From the IMG/VR virus record IMGVR_UViG_3300035703_000150, positions 1-46,766 of that record: a stretch of 46,766 nt of DNA; one strand, given 5' to 3'. Positions 11,239 to 43,404 of this stretch are shown piece after piece. The translations under genes were made by a program, and so were the position numbers. The DNA comes from a virus (lineage: Duplodnaviria > Caudoviricetes). The notes beneath the pieces were generated by a model. The model was not told the origin of the DNA and ran no database searches. It saw only the letters and a list, made by a program, of their open reading frames with translations. Positions within the stretch are counted from its first letter, which is position 1, and every line of letters begins with the position of its first letter.

Positions 11239-11437
11239 CTTTCTTCTTGAAGAAAACAAGAAGATGGCAAAAGAAAATCAAGAACTGATAGAATTTGTCA
11301 ATAGTGTTCAAGTGGCACTATCTCATCTGCTGCAAGATGGTGATATAATGGAAAGTGGCTTGACTTCTGCTAAAGACCTGTTACAATCTGCTGAAGAACT
11401 TCAAAACAAACATCGGGGTAAAAATGAAAAGTATTGA
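11222..11437 (+). CDS. Hypothetical helical protein
   Basis: ORF in coupled array. Confidence 0.55.
   Translation: MSMMYNFLLEENKKMAKENQELIEFVNSVQVALSHLLQDGDIMESGLTSAKDLLQSAEELQNKHRGKNEKY
11360..11387 (+). promoter_or_regulatory. Sigma70-type promoter for thyX
   Basis: TTGACT-16-TACAAT with TG extension, inside the upstream ORF. Confidence 0.55.
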
Positions 11438-12155
11438 ACTATATGGTGATGGTATTGGTAAAGTAGAACTTGTTGATAGTGTAGGAAGTGACCTTACGAT
11501 TGTGAAAGCAGCTCGAGTTTCATTCGGTGTTGACAAACAAGAGTTAGACGATAAGGATAAAAAACTTATTCGTTACCTTATCAAACACAAGCATACTTCA
11601 ACTTTGGAGCATTGTTTTGTAACTTTTAAATGTGTAGTTCCACTATTTGTCCGTTCACAGCATCATCGTCACCGCACTTGGAGTTATAACGAATGGTCAA
11701 ATCGCTATCGCGATCTAACAAAGCCAGAAAGCAAACCAGAGTTTTATGAACCAAAACAGTTTAGAACTCAACATAAAAGTAATCGGCAAGCAAGCAATGA
11801 AAACCAACTTGTTGATCCTTGGTTGACAGAACCTGATCAATGGGTTCAAGGAAGAACTGCCGCTTCTGCTATTCGCGATCATCATGAAGAATCTGTAAGA
11901 CTTTACAACGAACTAATAGAGAAAGGTGTTTGTCGTGAGCAAGCTCGTGGTGTGCTTCCACAAAATCTTTATACTTCTTATATTGCTTCCGCAAATATCA
12001 ATAATATTTTGAAGTTTATTGATCTTCGCTCTCATGAAGGAGCACAATACGAGATACAAGTTGTGGCTAAGGCTATGCTGCAAATTTTAGAGGATTTGTA
12101 TCCTGAAACCATAAAAGCTTATTACGAAATAAAAAATAGCACAGTGGTTACATAG
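11424..12155 (+). CDS. thyX: Flavin-dependent thymidylate synthase
   Basis: AARVS, H.STLEH, RHRTWSYNEWSNRY, EQARGVLP, LR...AQYEI. Confidence 0.95.
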   Translation: MKSIELYGDGIGKVELVDSVGSDLTIVKAARVSFGVDKQELDDKDKKLIRYLIKHKHTSTLEHCFVTFKCVVPLFVRSQHHRHRTWSYNEWSNRYRDLTKPESKPEFYEPKQFRTQHKSNRQASNENQLVDPWLTEPDQWVQGRTAASAIRDHHEESVRLYNELIEKGVCREQARGVLPQNLYTSYIASANINNILKFIDLRSHEGAQYEIQVVAKAMLQILEDLYPETIKAYYEIKNSTVVT

Positions 12156-12191
12156 TAAAGTAGCAACTATTTATATAGAGGAGAAAAAAAC

Positions 12192-12629
12192 ATGATTCTT
12201 GATTATAAGTATGTAGCTGGTTTATTTGATGGTGAAGGGTGGTTTGAATTAAACCGCTCATCTGGAAAAAGATGGAGAATGAAAAGAGAATATGCTTATT
12301 TTTGTAGAGCTGGTTTACAGATTAGAGAAAAATATATCATAGAGAGTCTGCAAGAAACATTTGGTGGTAAAATTTATACATCAAAGCCAAAATCTGATAA
12401 ACATTCTGTTACTTATAAATGGAATGTTTTTGGAAATCAAGCAGTATGCTTTGCTGATAAAGTCGCTCCATTTTTATTAGCAAAAAAACAACAAGCGGAA
12501 ATATTAGTACAATTCCAGGCTCAGAAAAAAGAAAATGGTAACAAAGCTCTTAGTGATGAAAGATATGCTCTTTATGGCGAATTGCATGAAAAAATGAAAA
12601 TTCTAAACAAAAGAGGAGTTGGAAAATGA
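12192..12629 (+). mobile_element. Free-standing single-motif LAGLIDADG homing endonuclease
   Basis: YVAGLFDGEG motif, FGG turn, PFLLAKKQQAE. Confidence 0.88.
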
Positions 12630-12725
12630 ATAAATTCAAAAAAAGTAGCGGAAGCAATGCGAACAATACTGGAAGATCTTTTCCCAGAAACACTTGCTGC
12701 TTATAATGAAGTAAAAAAGTTATGA
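12630..12725 (+). pseudogene. Orphaned duplicate of the thyX 3' end
   Basis: Translates KVAEAMRTILEDLFPETLAAYNEVKKL*, versus thyX VVAKAMLQILEDLYPETIKAYYEIKN. Confidence 0.85.
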
Positions 12726-12994
12726 TGGATTTATTAGGTTGGATTGGTGGTCTTTGTCTTGCTGTCTGTGCTTTTCCACAGGCAGTAAAGGTTTATAAAG
12801 ATAAAAATGCAGATGGTACAAGTCACGCTATGCTATGGCTGTGGATGATAGGTGAGATCAGCACCTTGTTGTATATTATTTTTGCAAATTTTTCTTACCC
12901 GTTATTCATAAACTATTCTCTAAACATTGTTTTCGTTGCTGTGATATTCTATTACAAATATTTATATGGAAAAATTAGAAAAACTAAATTATGA
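12722..12994 (+). CDS. PQ-loop / SemiSWEET-like three-helix membrane protein
   Basis: FPQAVKVYKDKNADGTS motif, three hydrophobic segments, NY..N in helix 3. Confidence 0.8.
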   Translation: MMDLLGWIGGLCLAVCAFPQAVKVYKDKNADGTSHAMLWLWMIGEISTLLYIIFANFSYPLFINYSLNIVFVAVIFYYKYLYGKIRKTKL

Positions 12995-15278: not shown

Positions 15279-15316
15279 TTGACATGCTTATCAAAGCCAC
15301 TTACAATGTGGCTTTG
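15279..15316 (+). promoter_or_regulatory. Sigma70-type promoter with -10 in the loop of an inverted repeat
   Basis: TTGACA-17-TACAAT; CAAAGCCAC-TTACAAT-GTGGCTTTG. Confidence 0.65.
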
Positions 15317-15374
15317 CTACTGTTTACAAACAGAGGAAAAAATGACTGAGCGTGTAGTTTCTAATAGGTGATAT

Positions 15375-15605
15375 GTGAAATACAAAGTTGGTGATGTTTT
15401 TATATTCAGAGAATACATCCCAACTCATGACGAAGATCCACTTTTGTTGGAACTAATGCAACCATTATATAACACTATTGGAATAGTGCTATCTGTCATA
15501 GAACACCCAAGTGGAAGCACATCATATATATGTTATTCTCAAAAAGATATGCGAGAACTACACATACCAGCCAACTTTATAACGGAGTTGATAAGTGAAG
15601 TATAA
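15375..15605 (+). CDS. Small SH3/KOW-like paralog
   Basis: MKYKVGDVF...IGIV. Confidence 0.6.
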   Translation: MKYKVGDVFIFREYIPTHDEDPLLLELMQPLYNTIGIVLSVIEHPSGSTSYICYSQKDMRELHIPANFITELISEV

Positions 15606-15789
15606 TATTGGTGATCTGCTTATTCTTCCTTGTATTTGTTTGAATGGATATATTGTCAAGTCTAATAAACTGGGAGTTGTTATAAGAGAGTTTCATACCC
15701 AGGACAGGTATTCTTATACTAAAAGAAAACTTGAACATTTTTTGACTTACCAAGATTCGCAGCATTTTTCTATCAATAAAGAGGTATAA
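15595..15789 (+). CDS. Small SH3/KOW-like paralog
   Basis: MKYNIGDLL...NGYIV. Confidence 0.55.
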   Translation: MKYNIGDLLILPCICLNGYIVKSNKLGVVIREFHTQDRYSYTKRKLEHFLTYQDSQHFSINKEV

Positions 15790-18700
15790 ATGACAAACAC
15801 AAATGAGAAAGGAGGCATCAAGGAAAAGCTCGTTTCGAGTATCAAGTTCACTGGACTTCACTCACATTCGGGCTTTTCCTAATGGTGCCATTGGAGATGG
15901 CTTGGGCCTTCCTTCGCAACATCTTGATTTTGCTTACCAAAATGGTCTTGATGCTTTTGCTCTAACAGATCACGGAACAGGAGCAGGTATTTCTTATCTT
16001 GTTCTTCATGCCAAGAAAATGGCAAAAGAAGGCAAGAACATCAAAACCATTTATGGTTGTGAAATGTATTTCCATCCGGATCTGGATCAGTGGAGAAAAG
16101 ATAAGGAAAATATTGAGAAAACAACAAAAGCCAAGAAAGATGATGAAGAAATCAGCGGAGCCTTTGTTGAGGACGAAGAAGAAACAAAGAAAAGCAAGAA
16201 AAGTATTCTAAACAAGCGTTCGCATCTTGTTCTTCTGGCACAAAACCAACAGGGTCTAAACAACCTTTATAAACTCATTTCTATGAGTTACAACAACGAA
16301 AACTATTATCGCTTTCCTCGTATTGACTATAAAATGCTGAAACAATATAATGAAGGCATCATCGCAAGTTCCGCTTGTATGGGTGGCGTTTTATCAACTG
16401 ATTATTGGGAAAACCGTGAAGCAGGAACGGATGCTGTTCTAAACGCCATGCGAGGAACAACCAAGAAAATGGTTGATATCTTTGGTGATCGTTGGTATGG
16501 CGAACTTCAATGGAATGGCTTGCCCATTCAGCATGAAATCAATAAATATGTTGTTCAAGTATGCGAGGAGTTTGGTGTAAAGCTTATTAGTACAGCAGAT
16601 AGTCATTATCCTTCACCAGATGCTTGGAAAGATAGAGAGATCTATAAGCGTATTTCCTATATGTCTTCTGGAAGACAAATAGATACAAACCTGCCAAACT
16701 CTATTGATGATATGGAATATGAGCTATATCCAAAAAATGGCGATCAAATGTGGGAGGCATATAAGAAATATTCAGCTAAGTGTGGTGTTCACTATGATGA
16801 TGAACTTGTTCTCAAGTCTATAGAGGAAACGTACCATATCGCTCATAATCGTATTGAAACATTTTATCCAGATAACCAAGTTCGTTTGCCAGACTTCCTT
16901 CTTCCAGAAGGAAAAACAGCGGAACAAACACTTGATGACCTTGCTGAAAATGCCCTTCGCGATATGAAAAAATGGAGCAATAAAGAATATCACGATAGGC
17001 TTTTGCGAGAGTTGAAAGTTATCAAAGATCGTGGTTTCGCAAAATACTTTGTGACAATGAAGGCCATTTCTGATCGGGCAAACAAAAGTTATTTTACTGG
17101 TCCCGGTCGCGGTTCAGCAGCAGGTTCTCTTGTTGCTTATGTTCTTGGTATTACACAAGTTGATCCGATCAAGTATAAACTGCAGTTTGAACGATTCTTG
17201 TCATCAACAGCAACAGACTATCCAGATATTGACTATGATGTAAGTGACGCGATGGGTCTAAAGCAAAACCTTATTGAAGAATGGGGAGAAAACCGTGTTG
17301 TTCCAATTACAAACTGGAACACGCTACAACTTCGCTCTCTTATCAAAGATATTGGTAAGTTTTATGGTGTTGATTTTCAAGAAGTAAATGCTGTAACCAG
17401 TAAAATGTTGTTTGAAGCAACACCACAAGCGAAAGCAGAGCATGGTATTACTGCTGGTGTTTATACTCCAACTTTTGATGAGGTAATGAAATATTCAAAA
17501 ACACTTCAAGACTTTTTGGATAAATACCCAAACATCAAAACACATGTAAATCAACTTTATGGTTCAATCCGTAGCGCATCTCGTCATGCTGGTGGAATAG
17601 TTGTAGGAGAAAACCTTGACGAATGGATGCCACTAATCAATAGCAAGGGTGTTCGTCAAACTCCGTGGGCAGAAGGTCAAAATGTTCGTCATCTTGAGCC
17701 AATGGGTTTTATCAAGTTTGATGTTCTTGGTCTTGAAACTCTTTCTACAATGGAAAAGGCTGTATTTCATATTCTGCGAAGACACAAGGGTGTAAAAAAT
17801 CCAACATTTGAAGATGTAAAAAGTTTTTACAATCAACATCTACATCCAGATGTGCTGGATATGAATGATGGTGAAGTATATAAAAATATATTCCACAATG
17901 GAAGTTTTCCAGGTATTTTTCAGTTTACAGAGGTCGGTGCTCAAAGTTTTTGTCAGCGTGTAAAACCTAACAACATTGTAGATATTTCTTCTATCACTTC
18001 TATTTTCCGTCCCGGACCTCTGTCTGCTGGCGTAGATAAATCGTTTGCCGAAAGCAAGAACGATCCAGATAGTGTTATTTACGAACACGAACTTATCAAG
18101 GAGGCAACGCAAGAAACATATGGCTACCTCGTCTTCCAGGAGCAGATTGCTCTACTCGCTCATAAACTTGGTCGTGATATTTCTCTTGATGAGGGCAACT
18201 CTCTGCGAAAAGTGCTAACAAAAAAAGGCACAGGAAAAGAAGCAGAGGTAAAAGATAAACTACACGAAAAGTTTATCAATGGTTGTATAGATAAAGGCAT
18301 TGGAAAACAAGTTGGTGAAAAACTATGGCAGAAGTTTATTTACTTCTCTGGATATGGTTTCAATAAAAGCCATGCTGTTTGCTATTCTATTATTTCTTAT
18401 CAGTGTGCTTGGCTTTATAACTATTATCCAAGTGAATGGCTTGCTGCCTATCTTGATAGTCAACCGGATACAAAGAAAGAAAAAGCAGTAAATATTGTAA
18501 AAGCAGCAGGATATAAAGTTCAAGGCGTTGATATCAACAAGTCCGGAAAAGTATGGGAAATCAGCGATGATGGACGCACACTTGTTCAACCACTGTCAGC
18601 AATCAAAGGTGTTGGAGATGCGGCAATAAAAGAAATATTGGATCATCGCCCATTCAAAACAGTTGAAGATTTTCTTTTTCATCCACGGATCAGTTACAGC

Positions 18701-19249
18701 AAACTCAATAAAAAGAATATTGACGCTCTTTGTCGTAGTGAAGCACTTGTGAGTTTGATGGATGCTCGTTTTGCAGGAGGTAAACATTTTTGGTCCGCTA
18801 TTGCTGTTGATCGTCCAAGAAAGCCAGAAAATCTAACAGAAAACATTAAAACATATGCTCCCGAAGGTGATTTCAGCAGAGATGAAAAGATTCTCAACAC
18901 TTTGGAGTTGACAGGTGTGTATCCAATCAGTATGATAGTTTCTCCCGAAGTCCAGCAAAAACTGGAAGAAAAAATGATTCCACCACTTGGGTCATTTGAT
19001 CCAGACCTTGGTGTCTGTTGGTTTATTCCAAAAAGCATAGAAAAGAAAACAACAAAAAATGGAAAGAACTATTTGATTGTAGAAGCTATTGATGATACAA
19101 ATATTGTTACAAAGATCAAATGCTGGGCTTTTGATCCAAAGAAAGATACTATACATGTCAATAGACCATATGTTTCTAAGCTTGATTACCAAGAAGATTG
19201 GGGATTCAGCACAAGAAGTATTGGTAAAAACTTCAAACTTATCGGATGA
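15790..19249 (+). CDS. dnaE: DNA polymerase III alpha subunit, reading frame interrupted at 15880-15889
   Basis: ALTDHG, GPGRGSAAGSLVAY, PDIDYD, KFDVLGL, FQEQ, YGFNKSHA. Probable start ATG 15790 (GAGG RBS) encodes FTGLHSHSGFS in a different frame from the body. Confidence 0.95.
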
Positions 19250-20612: not shown

Positions 20613-20863
20613 AACCAATAAAATCAGAAACAAAATCTCACAAAGATAAAGAAAAAGACCTCAAACAAAAACTGAATATGTTTGATCGCCTTCCAGATCA
20701 TTGCTTGACTTGTAACTCTCCGTTTGATAGAAAGAACAGAGAACAAGTTCAGTCTTGGTTTGTTGTTGTAAAGAATGAAGAGCAAAAATGTAACTTGTAT
20801 TGTCCAGAATGCTGGCATAAAGCAACAAAACTTGTTGAAGAATTTTATGGAGAAAAGAAATGA
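20609..20863 (+). CDS. Zn-finger protein
   Basis: CLTC...YCPECW. Confidence 0.65.
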   Translation: MKPIKSETKSHKDKEKDLKQKLNMFDRLPDHCLTCNSPFDRKNREQVQSWFVVVKNEEQKCNLYCPECWHKATKLVEEFYGEKK

Positions 20864-21693
20864 TTCAAACAGCACTGACATTTGATGATGTTCTACTTGT
20901 TCCGGCTTTTAGCACAATAACAAGCCGAAGCGAAGTAAAACTTGACAACAGTTTAGATAAAGAAAGAACACTGACACTACCTGTTATTTCGTCTCCTATG
21001 GATACTGTAACAGAAGTGGATATGGCTGTAACCATATCAAAGCATGGTGGTCTTGGTATTGTTCACAGATACAATTCAGCTGAACATCAAGCAAAACTTG
21101 TATGGGAAGCAAAAAACAAAGGCGCTAAACTTATTGGTGCTGCTGTTGGTTCAACTGGTGATTTTTATGAAAGAACCTGCGAACTTGTAAAGTGTGGTGT
21201 TGATATCATCTGTGTTGATGTTGCTCACGGTCATCATCAAAATGTAAAAGAAGCGATGGATAAAATAAACAAACATCCCCAACGATCAAGTTTTCACCTT
21301 ATGGCTGGTAATGTTGCCACTGGCAAAGCATTTCAGGATTTGAGCGATTGGGGTGCCGATAGCATTCGTGTTGGTATTGGTGGAGGCTGTTTCGTCCCAG
21401 GAACTCTTGTAAATACTGAAAGTGGCTTGAAGAAAATAGAAGATATTTGCGTTGGAGACAAAGTTTTCAGCCATACAGGAAAACTACAACCAGTTATTGA
21501 CACTCTTGTATTTGATAGGGATGAAGAAATACTTTCTATCAACGGTATTGACTGCACCAAAAACCACGAGTTTTATGTTGTTGATAAGGAAAATGCCAAT
21601 CTCATAAATGAGGATAATATTCATCTGTTTGCCCGATGGGTTCATGCAGAACAACTTGATATCGAAAAACATCTTCTTATTGAGTTGGAGTAG
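20860..21693 (+). CDS. guaB: IMP dehydrogenase / GMP reductase family, N-terminal half fused to split N-intein
   Basis: LTFDDVLLVP, SSPMDTVTE, DVAHGH, AGNVAT, RVGIGGG, then intein CFVPGT. Confidence 0.93.
   Translation: MIQTALTFDDVLLVPAFSTITSRSEVKLDNSLDKERTLTLPVISSPMDTVTEVDMAVTISKHGGLGIVHRYNSAEHQAKLVWEAKNKGAKLIGAAVGSTGDFYERTCELVKCGVDIICVDVAHGHHQNVKEAMDKINKHPQRSSFHLMAGNVATGKAFQDLSDWGADSIRVGIGGGCFVPGTLVNTESGLKKIEDICVGDKVFSHTGKLQPVIDTLVFDRDEEILSINGIDCTKNHEFYVVDKENANLINEDNIHLFARWVHAEQLDIEKHLLIELE
21388..21690 (+). mobile_element. Split intein, N-part (IMPDH-1 type)
   Basis: Block A CFVPGTLV and block B CTKNHEF; ORF ends shortly after. Confidence 0.92.
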
Positions 21694-21710
21694 GTAGTAA
21701 ATGTATGAGT

Positions 21711-21733
21711 GCCTCCTATATACATTAGGAGGC
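21711..21733 (+). promoter_or_regulatory. Hairpin sequestering the endonuclease RBS
   Basis: GCCTCCTA-TATACAT-TAGGAGGC; AGGAGG lies in the 3' arm just upstream of ATG 21741. Confidence 0.75.
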
Positions 21734-21740
21734 TACACCC

Positions 21741-22556
21741 ATGAAGACTGAAAAAGTTTGCTCTATTTGTGGAGTTGTTTTTACCCACAAAGATAAAAGA
21801 CAAAAATATTGCAATAGACAATGTTACAACAAAAGACTAAAAGGAAATGGAAATCCTTTCGCTGGAAAAACACACAGTAAAGAAACTGTGGGTAAAATAA
21901 GAGAAAAACTTATTGGAAAGATGGTTGGAGATAAAAATCCATTTTATGGTAAGCAACACGACAAAGAAACTCTTGATAAAATAAATAAAGCAAATGCACT
22001 ATTTCGTGAAAATAATAAAGAGTTAGTAGAAGAACGTTTGCTCAAAAGATTGAACCTAACAGAAGAAAAGATAAAACTTATATATGAAGAATATAGGGAT
22101 ACACACGAAACTCTTGCAACTTTGAAAAAAAAATATGAAGTTGATTCAAGAGTGCTAAAAAAGTATTTTATCAAATATGTTGCTTGCACCAAAGAAGAAC
22201 TCGAAGAAGTTGCTTTTAGAAAAAAATATAAAAATGCTACAAGTGTTGGAGAAGAAACTTTATATACTTTACTGTGTAATCTTTTTGGTAGTGACAAGAT
22301 AAAAAGACAATATAAAATATCATTTTATTACTTTGATTTTCTTGTTGACGACAAGTTCTTGATAGAGTATGATGGCTATTATTGGCACAATTTAGTAAAG
22401 AATAATGATGATGTGAAAACACAAACAGCGTTATCTAATGGATACAACTTGTATCGTGTTCGTGAAGACGAAAAAAGAGAAGTAGATTTTCTAAAAGAAA
22501 TACAAATAATAAAGGATATGTATGAAGTTCAAACTAAAAGAAATAACATCAATTGA
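21741..22556 (+). mobile_element. Homing endonuclease: Zn finger, NUMOD3 repeats and Vsr-like (DUF559-type) nuclease domain
   Basis: CSIC...YCNRQC; NPFAGKTHS and NPFYGKQHD; E...FDF...IEYDGYYWH...GYNLYRV. Confidence 0.88.
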
Positions 22557-22641
22557 AACAAAACATTATAAAGGACCCGTCCATGATCTGACTGTAAGTG
22601 AAGATCATTCATATAATGTTCGCGGAACCATAGTTCATAAC
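22522..22641 (+). mobile_element. Split intein, C-part (40 aa)
   Basis: Blocks F/G ending His-Asn, followed by Ser+1. Confidence 0.92.
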
Positions 22642-23151
22642 TCTATCTGTTCAACACGACTACAAACAGGTTTTGGTGTCCCGAACCTTGCTGCCATATT
22701 TGATTGTGTTCAATCACAGGCATATAGGAGTGGAAAAACAAAACTTATTGTAGATGGCGGTATCAAGAATAGTGGCGACATGGTAAAAGCATTCGCTGCT
22801 GGTGCTCACTTTGTTATGTGTGGTTCAATGCTTGCCGGAACAGATGAAAGTCCAGGAGAAACATTTGTTGATGGTAATGGTGTAAAGATGAAGAACTATC
22901 GTGGTATGGCCAGCCGAGAAGCGCAGACAAACTGGCGTGGTAAAAGTTCAGCACCAGAAGGCATTTCTACATTCATCAAACATAAAGGTTCGGTTGAAAA
23001 CATTCTTGATGATATCCGTGGAAATATTCAAAGTGGATTTTCATATGCCGGTGCAAGAAACTTCACAGAACTATCAGGTAAAGTTCAATTCATTCAGCAG
23101 ACAAGTGCTGGTTTAGGTGAGAGTTTTACACATATTTTGAATAAAAAGTGA
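22522..23151 (+). CDS. guaB: Split C-intein fused to IMP dehydrogenase C-terminal half
   Basis: VHDLTV...VHN|SICSTR (catalytic Cys), DGGIK, VMCGSMLAGTDESPG, YRGMAS. Confidence 0.93.
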   Translation: MKFKLKEITSIETKHYKGPVHDLTVSEDHSYNVRGTIVHNSICSTRLQTGFGVPNLAAIFDCVQSQAYRSGKTKLIVDGGIKNSGDMVKAFAAGAHFVMCGSMLAGTDESPGETFVDGNGVKMKNYRGMASREAQTNWRGKSSAPEGISTFIKHKGSVENILDDIRGNIQSGFSYAGARNFTELSGKVQFIQQTSAGLGESFTHILNKK

Positions 23152-40220: not shown

Positions 40221-40292
40221 GCCAACGTAGTTTAACGGTAAAATTCCACTTTTGTAATGTGCGAGATACAGGTTCAAATCCTGTCGTTGGCT
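40221..40292 (+). tRNA. tRNA-Thr(UGU)-like, irregular anticodon stem, no encoded CCA
   Basis: GCCAACG/CGTTGGC acceptor stem, ACAGG-TTCAAAT-CCTGT T-arm, TTTGTAA loop. Confidence 0.65.
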
Positions 40293-41581: not shown

Positions 41582-41658
41582 GCTCCTGTAACTCAGTTGG
41601 TCAGAGTGTCGCTCTTATAAGGCGAAAGTCGTGAGTTCAAATCTCACCGGGAGTACCA
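41582..41658 (+). tRNA. tRNA-Ile(UAU), copy 1
   Basis: Full cloverleaf; TCGCT-CTTATAA-GGCGA anticodon arm; ends ACCA. Confidence 0.9.
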
Positions 41659-43327: not shown

Positions 43328-43404
43328 GCTCCCGTAACTCAATTGGTTAGAGTGTCGCTCTTATAAGGCGAAAGTTGTGAGTTCAAATCTCACCGGGAGT
43401 ACCA
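43328..43404 (+). tRNA. tRNA-Ile(UAU), copy 2
   Basis: Near-identical to 41582-41658 (four substitutions by eye); ends ACCA. Confidence 0.9.

Follow-up and report, generated by a model that had tools for sequence, protein, structure and literature searches.

The DNA analysed here, called the window below, is a virus record of 46,766 bases (about 25% complete) whose genes include functions in nucleotide metabolism, lysis and chaperones, and the sequencing runs in which it occurs come for the most part from lake metagenomes. Its ORF at 15803-19249 carries the DnaE domains PHP, polymerase, finger and HhH, with the PHP match beginning at profile position 11. The HxH motif of the PHP domain, whose residues are metal ligands, is absent from this ORF and is found at the end of a 30-codon ORF that begins at ATG 15790 and stops at TAA 15880. 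A sequence-only reading of the window had described dnaE as split in this way, with an ORF at 15790-15882 (30 aa, ending HSHSGFS) and with the body of the polymerase read in the +1 frame, and had pointed out that a start at 15803 lacks the HxH ligands; both observations were borne out, the latter by the position at which the PHP profile match begins. Deletion of 15880-15889, also proposed there, restored the H-to-D spacing of intact relatives and of Thermus DnaE. The intact motif reads HSHSGMSVGDG at 99.6% identity and HAHSGFSIFDG in P0004 and P0145. The features of the locus are collected in Table 1.

Table 1. Features of the dnaE 5' region, in window coordinates.
Feature	Position	Strand	Basis or remark
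Predicted sigma-70-like promoter for dnaE, 11/12	15279..15307	+	Consensus match only; hairpin 15292-15316 overlaps
Orphan former dnaE start (MTERVVS, NR, stop)	15342..15371	+	Left by earlier insertion
Two small ORFs (76 and 64 aa) separating the former dnaE start from the present one	15375..15789	+	Without endonuclease
Ribosome-binding site AGAGG and start ATG 15790	15780..15792	+	Common to gapped and intact alleles
Pre-gap frame, 30 codons, with HxH metal-binding motif of PHP domain	15790..15879	+	ORF and comparison with Thermus DnaE
Cassette allele, 99 nt	15794..15892	+	Near-identical phages have 62 other bases and an intact frame
Internal Shine-Dalgarno-like motif AGAAAGGAGG, foot of stem	15806..15815	+	Putative role
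Long stem, 5' arm	15814..15832	+	Predicted fold and covariation
Two inner helices	15837-15840/15860-15863; 15844-15849/15853-15858	+	Fold; one both-side change
Long stem, 3' arm: GFS codons, stop (AA bulged), entire gap	15869..15889	+	Predicted fold and covariation
Predicted take-off codon UCC (Ser30)	15877..15879	+	Junction comparison
Coding gap, 10 nt, opening with TAA and closing with the predicted landing triplet GCC (15887-15889)	15880..15889	+
Rest of dnaE (PHP, polymerase, finger, HhH), predicted resume codon ATT	15890..19249	+	Purifying selection

Upstream of the split gene, the near-consensus sigma-70 promoter region (15279-15316) includes a 9-pair inverted repeat whose loop contains the -10 box. 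The repeat is kept in L082-L085 and may control dnaE as an operator or a terminator. The orphan dnaE start (15342-15789) goes back to an earlier event in which two small ORFs were inserted. The N-terminus of that start is fused to dnaE in L082/L083, which are without the insertion, and in P0002; the small ORFs are also found in the intact allele of L084/L085, and run X18 has both arrangements. At the second PHP motif (15960-15990), the window's subclade reads TDHGTGAG, compared with TDHGNMNG in most relatives. Other interrupted genes were seen elsewhere in the window. IMP dehydrogenase (20860-23151) is in two pieces with intein-like ends and a NUMOD3/DUF559 endonuclease gene between them, the same layout as that of the fractured genes in PMC2677866. 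At 11424-12994 a thymidylate synthase ORF is followed by a LAGLIDADG endonuclease ORF, with no Rfam intron at cut-off, and the arrangement is possibly an intron or a split gene. Two tRNA genes have the anticodon TAT (Ile; 41582-41658 and 43328-43404) and would read AUA directly, and a tRNA-Thr gene lies at 40221.

Eight runs were compared with the window, all as contigs. The gapped form aligned without gaps to contigs of X1 (possibly the source run), X4 and X10 and to a 135-base piece in X3, and X4, X10 and X3 come from three studies other than that of X1. An assembly error at 15880, which the sequence-only reading had kept as an alternative, was ruled out by these unbroken contigs, the three further studies carrying the same ten bases. 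X2, X13, X18 and X20, and also X3, join 15793 to 15893 through 62 other bases that replace the 99. L084/L085 give the sequence of this intact allele, in which the frame ends HSHSGMSV before GDG and both flanks are 99% identical. Because the 62 bases stand in for the 99 between such flanks, it is the entire 5' segment that is exchanged between alleles, not the ten bases alone. Gapped and intact forms also fell together in the protein cluster, the gapped form occurring in DnaEs 92-100% identical to the window's. Alignment of related dnaE genes, suggested earlier as a check, found the gap cleanly absent in intact relatives and also recurrent elsewhere. The idea that the split places dnaE under recoding control was not upheld, as the same lakes also harbour an intact allele that is nearly identical; for the same reason, a hop over the gap looks like rescue from a selfish insertion, not like needed regulation.

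An unselected survey of 120 loci comprised 3 gapped loci, 116 intact loci and 1 chance match (119 dnaE loci). Targeted patterns yielded 28 distinct elements from 63 partly redundant loci, which represent 21 junction types; with L305 (added by hand) and two cultured phages the number of types is 24. Non-dnaE loci were dropped from two of the pattern searches (19/24 and 22/46). Exact and subclade patterns matched 0 viral contigs, and close kin may be outside the set searched. There was no gap in the top 80 viral relatives, 79 of which show the whole motif while L009 starts inside it. The single match of a prokaryote genome scan, with TGG, was discarded as chance. L251 and L274, which have a distant Firmicutes-like phage DnaE, carry stop-led gaps of 8 and 10 bases at the same serine; in these two, the stem runs from the start codon onwards, and the Shine-Dalgarno motif serves as the normal signal for initiation. 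Six further DnaE proteins (P0143, P0153, P0155, P0156, P0160 and P0115; 1103-1108 aa, on long contigs) start after HxH and are probably further gapped alleles.

The gaps are 4-16 nt long, and among the 24 types 9 keep the frame, 11 shift it by +1 and 4 by +2. Every gap starts with a stop codon (24/24 types: 10 TAA, 8 TAG, 6 TGA), a feature that was required by the viral search patterns and not by the unselected survey or the cultured-phage protein search. With the resume codon set by the protein motif, independently of the gap letters, the last triplet of the gap agreed with the take-off codon in its middle base plus one other base in 21/21 types. The same two-base match was found in 0 of 19-21 types at offsets -6 to -1 and in at most 3/21 at +1 to +6. 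Across the 24 types, 23 showed the strict two-base landing match and one matched by wobble (OtterstedtS21, UAU to GAC), and 0/24 gaps contained an earlier landing match. The window's landing triplet GCC mismatches UCC at the first base, and first-base mismatches (UCC to GCC or ACC, UCG to GCG or ACG, UCU to ACU) had an identical third base in 7/7 types, against 3/15 types with a first-base match (Fisher p 7e-4, with types hand-tallied and non-independent). Judged from these junctions, third-base identity where the first base mismatches is what re-pairing of a tRNA predicts. An alternative 13-nt hop, with take-off at GGC and a matched landing at GGU, was rejected; it would leave the motif one residue shorter and has no pause, and GGU is absent in P0122 and L206. 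The pre-gap peptides, considered with a KKYK-like nascent-peptide signal as comparison, have the PHP motif alone in common.

The ten bases had been read as a small stop-led hairpin with a 2-nt loop. Such a loop cannot form, and a tetraloop form is as stable as shuffled sequence (z -0.07). Over the 24 junction types the mini-hairpin gave 82 pairs against a null of 70 +/- 6 (P 0.026), with four or more pairs in 11/24 types where 7.4 were expected, and this weak excess, only slightly above the null, led us to reject it as a family-wide signal. What survives of the claim is that the ten bases lie in a hairpin: they form the lower end of the 3' arm in a long stem. The region 15805-15892 is predicted to fold to a single hairpin with an outer stem of 19 pairs (15814-15832 with 15869-15889, AA bulged), which has a z of -6.5 (0/200 shuffles), against +0.7 for the intact allele. 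The hairpin is 76 nt long (15814-15889); its 3' arm consists of the GFS codons and the whole gap, and the stem ends at the last base of the gap. For type I (3 sequences), 87/87 cells pair. Both-side changes occur at three pairs, of which two lie within the gap, a level of covariation that 21/500 shuffles reached and that rests on those 3 sequences. For type II (8 sequences), 168/168 cells pair, and covariation is not above the shuffle control (257/500) because the sequences vary too little. In type II the stem codons are frozen including third positions and the loop codons vary mostly synonymously, which suggests that the short pre-gap ORF is translated and that the stem is selected as RNA.

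Across the elements, bases -12 to -2 pair upstream (probability at least 0.7) in 28/29 elements against 4/153 intact controls, and each lineage has a different sequence in this upstream stem. The lower stem across the gap is missing or weak in several elements. The motif AGAAAGGAGG at the stem foot stands in three different reading frames among relatives, and is weak or absent in several elements that were found without requiring it; a second AAAGGAGG, sought within the window, was not found. An out-of-frame AUG 3' of the stem was dismissed as a signal, being unconserved (GAC in L235, L240, L244 and L270). Rfam searches of the window and 7 loci gave no intron match and four weak chance matches, with tRNAs alone at the gathering cut-off.

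An endonuclease gene lies directly upstream in 17/27 elements against 2/60 intact genes. Sixteen of the 17 belong to one family that resembles T7 endonuclease I and has CxxC repeats, and one is HNH; neither of the two beside intact dnaE is of the T7-endonuclease-I-like family. The remaining 10/27 elements are without a nuclease yet keep the gap, and the window locus likewise has no endonuclease upstream of dnaE. At several loci a former dnaE start, broken at the same motif, sits before the nuclease. In run X3 the start of the window's cassette joins a 1307-nt contig that ends like the nuclease gene of L206/L237 (23 identical bases, from comparison of the last 30 letters of the contig), and this nuclease-side join has about 2x the depth of the nuclease-free join. 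An 83-base core of the cassette is nearly the same in DnaEs that are 55-72% identical. On a quick DnaE tree, with intact kin sampled only near the window's clade and not in deep clades, gapped alleles are scattered with 9 state changes, at least 6 of them on well-supported branches; the gap label is still clustered on this tree (0/500 shuffles as low). Enterocloster phage PMBT24 was set aside as a candidate, since it has an HNH gene upstream of dnaE but an intact motif. Judged by a nuclease beside the disrupted site and a patchy occurrence across near-identical genomes, the element is probably a homing-endonuclease cassette.

Synonymous and amino-acid-changing differences in post-gap dnaE stood at 12:1 (L085), 151:24 (L082) and 231:37 (L083). 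By these ratios, to which recombination with intact alleles could contribute, post-gap dnaE is under purifying selection, and the frames open after the gap span 954-1212 codons. In a complete 240-kb relative the single dnaE is gapped, and family B polymerase is absent. All relatives searched (5/5) have a divergent PolA-like ORF of small size (361-416 aa) in G001-G005 (e.g. G004:C1:78177-78821), and dnaE may therefore not be strictly essential. Gaps were also found in cultured phages. Gordonia phage Erutan (OR475273.1) has UCC and a 9-base gap ending GCC, the same UCC-to-GCC pair as the window, with an HNH gene directly upstream, and its annotated dnaE start is a GTG inside the gap. In Gordonia phage OtterstedtS21 (OP172870.1) a 4-base gap lies one codon later (UAU to GAC). 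The dnaE of phage Alyssamiracle is intact, no mycobacteriophage gap was seen among the best 60 of 254 matches listed, and searches for a cultured close relative of the window phage or of its nuclease found none.

The sequence comparisons show the ten bases to be a genuine gap, opened by a stop, within a mobile cassette at the 5' end of dnaE. From this comparative evidence, we consider it highly probable that ribosomes hop over the gap by programmed bypass. A hop from UCC to GCC had been the first of three mechanisms offered by the sequence-only reading, and it is the one that the landing rule, the stem and Erutan support well. A hop is favoured over readthrough or slippage because the gaps span three frame classes and, in 7/21 types, readthrough or slippage would run into another stop. 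The ribosome would start at 15790, unwind the hairpin and pause when the stop enters the A site and Ser-tRNA occupies UCC. Once outside the ribosome, the GFS codons could pair again with the 5' arm, by then free, and the closing stem would pull the mRNA forward during the time in which the peptidyl-tRNA has no codon partner. The tRNA would pair again at GCC, the earliest triplet to offer it two good pairs, and decoding would resume at ATT. The product would have about 1149 residues and read GFS-IGDG at the junction. A contribution of the internal Shine-Dalgarno motif, which may hold or place the ribosome, is the weakest step of the model. The top of the 3' arm lies 11 bases before the stop, and a point some 11 bases upstream is about where mRNA leaves the ribosome. 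For T4, the figure discussed by Wills and colleagues is 26 bases (10.1101/2024.12.09.627546). As to origin, a homing endonuclease gene would have inserted at the conserved motif and supplied dnaE with a new start; the nuclease target site would be destroyed by the gap and the hop would rescue dnaE, and in the window's lineage the nuclease would have been lost and the gap kept.

Removal of the gap from the RNA, by a micro-intron, a trans ribozyme or a nuclease plus ligase for which the stem marks the site, is very unlikely. It fits a stem that ends exactly at the gap end in types I and II and the short repeats that border each gap, and some phage group I introns also have a leading stop. However, neither terminal base nor length (4-16 nt) is conserved among the gaps, the window and 7 loci have no Rfam intron match, RtcB was found in 0/5 genomes (a host ligase might act in its place), and excision needs neither the third-base identity of the 7/7 types nor the absence of earlier matches. 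A group I intron has a U at the 5' splice site, a terminal G and a catalytic core. The proposal of a collapsed group I intron fails on the terminal G, which is not kept (a sister type I gap ends in A at the group I register), and on the empty Rfam result. We give a somewhat smaller chance to the explanation that there is no recoding and that translation starts afresh at ATG 15803 in the +1 frame or at ATT 15890, with or without a separate 30-residue peptide. The hairpin does bring ATT 15890 next to a perfect Shine-Dalgarno motif at the stem foot, and dnaE of Erutan is annotated from the GTG in its gap; but the resume codon in other elements is ACA, CCC, GTA, ACT, AAT and others, L214 has ACG at the window's ATG 15803, both products would be without the HxH ligands, and the landing rule would go unexplained.

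Lower again in probability is a +1 slip at UUU-U or UCC-UAA that would add three residues to the motif. The window's +1 frame is open through the gap, and a stop in the A site favours slips. This mechanism, another of those in the sequence-only reading, cannot explain the family, in which the frame classes number 9, 11 and 4: gaps of 3n or 3n+2 would not be served, another stop lies in the path of 7/21 types, and the landing rule again has no explanation. The distance from the motif to TDH, moreover, varies only by +/-1 among 116 intact relatives. Least probable of all is that the gapped dnaE is defunct and persists only through the endonuclease and through polymerases of the host or of co-infecting phages. 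Intact alleles that coexist and recombine, and the presence of the PolA-like ORF, would allow for this, whereas the long open frames after the gap, the loop codons before it, most of which change synonymously only, the persistence of the gap in the 10/27 elements without a nuclease and its occurrence in plaque-forming cultured phages argue against it.

The proposed bypass of dnaE was compared with known systems from published accounts. Natural bypassing is established there for T4 gene 60 with its homologues and for yeast mitochondrial byps (10.1101/2022.08.31.505936), with limited data for the Hau3 terminase (PMC10732093). The features of a bypass are present in the dnaE sequence, namely a removable gap, a stop after the take-off codon, a landing triplet and predicted 5' structure. 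As in T4 gene 60/mobA (Manning and Atkins, 10.1101/2022.08.31.505936), the stop comes right after the take-off codon and the landing triplet ends the gap with no earlier match; as in the T4 mobA cassette, a nuclease is combined with a new N-terminal piece ending at the landing codon, and the nuclease is often lost while the gap stays. In T4 mobA the gap gives protection from the nuclease and persists after the nuclease is gone (10.1101/2022.08.31.505936). In contrast, the T4 host gene is a topoisomerase, not dnaE, and its gap is about 50 nt, not 4-16 nt. Take-off is at Gly/Asp in the T4 type and at Ser (once Tyr) here, and at landing T4-type cassettes show no mismatches other than wobble, whereas a first-base mismatch is tolerated here. 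A UUCG stem-loop contains the T4 take-off codon in its 5' arm, while the present one is in the 3' arm of a long upstream stem, and a mini Shine-Dalgarno inside the T4 gap has no counterpart here. The nuclease is HNH MobA in T4 and mostly of the T7-endonuclease-I-like CxxC family here, with no sequence homology noticed. The dnaE system would thus work like gene 60 bypassing, yet it is not a member of the T4 gene 60/mobA element, because gene, nuclease, gap size, codon and fold differ.

Nearest in size is the terminase of Streptomyces phage Hau3, with gaps of 7-10 nt in a conserved motif and with an internal Shine-Dalgarno and local structure proposed as signals, as here (PMC10732093). When UAA replaced UUA, mass spectrometry of the product made in E. 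coli demonstrated the Hau3 hop; Hau3 itself uses the rare sense codon UUA, tied to host development, whereas the dnaE gaps have true stops and a nuclease cassette. The Magnusiomyces byps likewise are many short mobile bypassed inserts with a loose landing match (10.1101/2022.08.31.505936), but they are 27-55 nt long, use an unused sense codon and mitochondrial ribosomes, and occur in many genes, not at one dnaE site. Fractured phage genes share a free-standing endonuclease in dnaE and in other replication genes of environmental phages; they rely, however, on protein trans-splicing by split inteins, and no intein is present at the dnaE junction (PMC2677866). Our literature search, mostly of papers open without subscription, found no paper on a dnaE bypass. 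We put at a little better than even the broader proposal that these loci form a widespread family of miniature hop devices in phage dnaE, making hops of 4-16 bases onto a two-base match by means of one re-zipping hairpin and an upstream Shine-Dalgarno anchor. They would use ordinary bacterial ribosomes in several phyla and would be a repeatedly evolved third route, besides introns and inteins, for homing endonucleases into an essential motif.

Many phage dnaE genes would, on this proposal, be annotated with wrong starts that leave out the metal-binding motif, and such starts were found in 10 DnaE proteins among 179 fetched. Wills, Parsawar and Atkins proposed that pairing of exiting mRNA drives forward bypassing, and named events near the exit as the main unsolved problem (10.1101/2024.12.09.627546). 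The dnaE cassette is predicted to be a single 76-nt hairpin with the geometry of that proposal, which would make the proposal directly testable. If true, the finding would add a second nuclease-linked bypass family, in another gene and with two dozen natural variants and cultured carriers, and nuclease-linked bypassing would be a recurring strategy.
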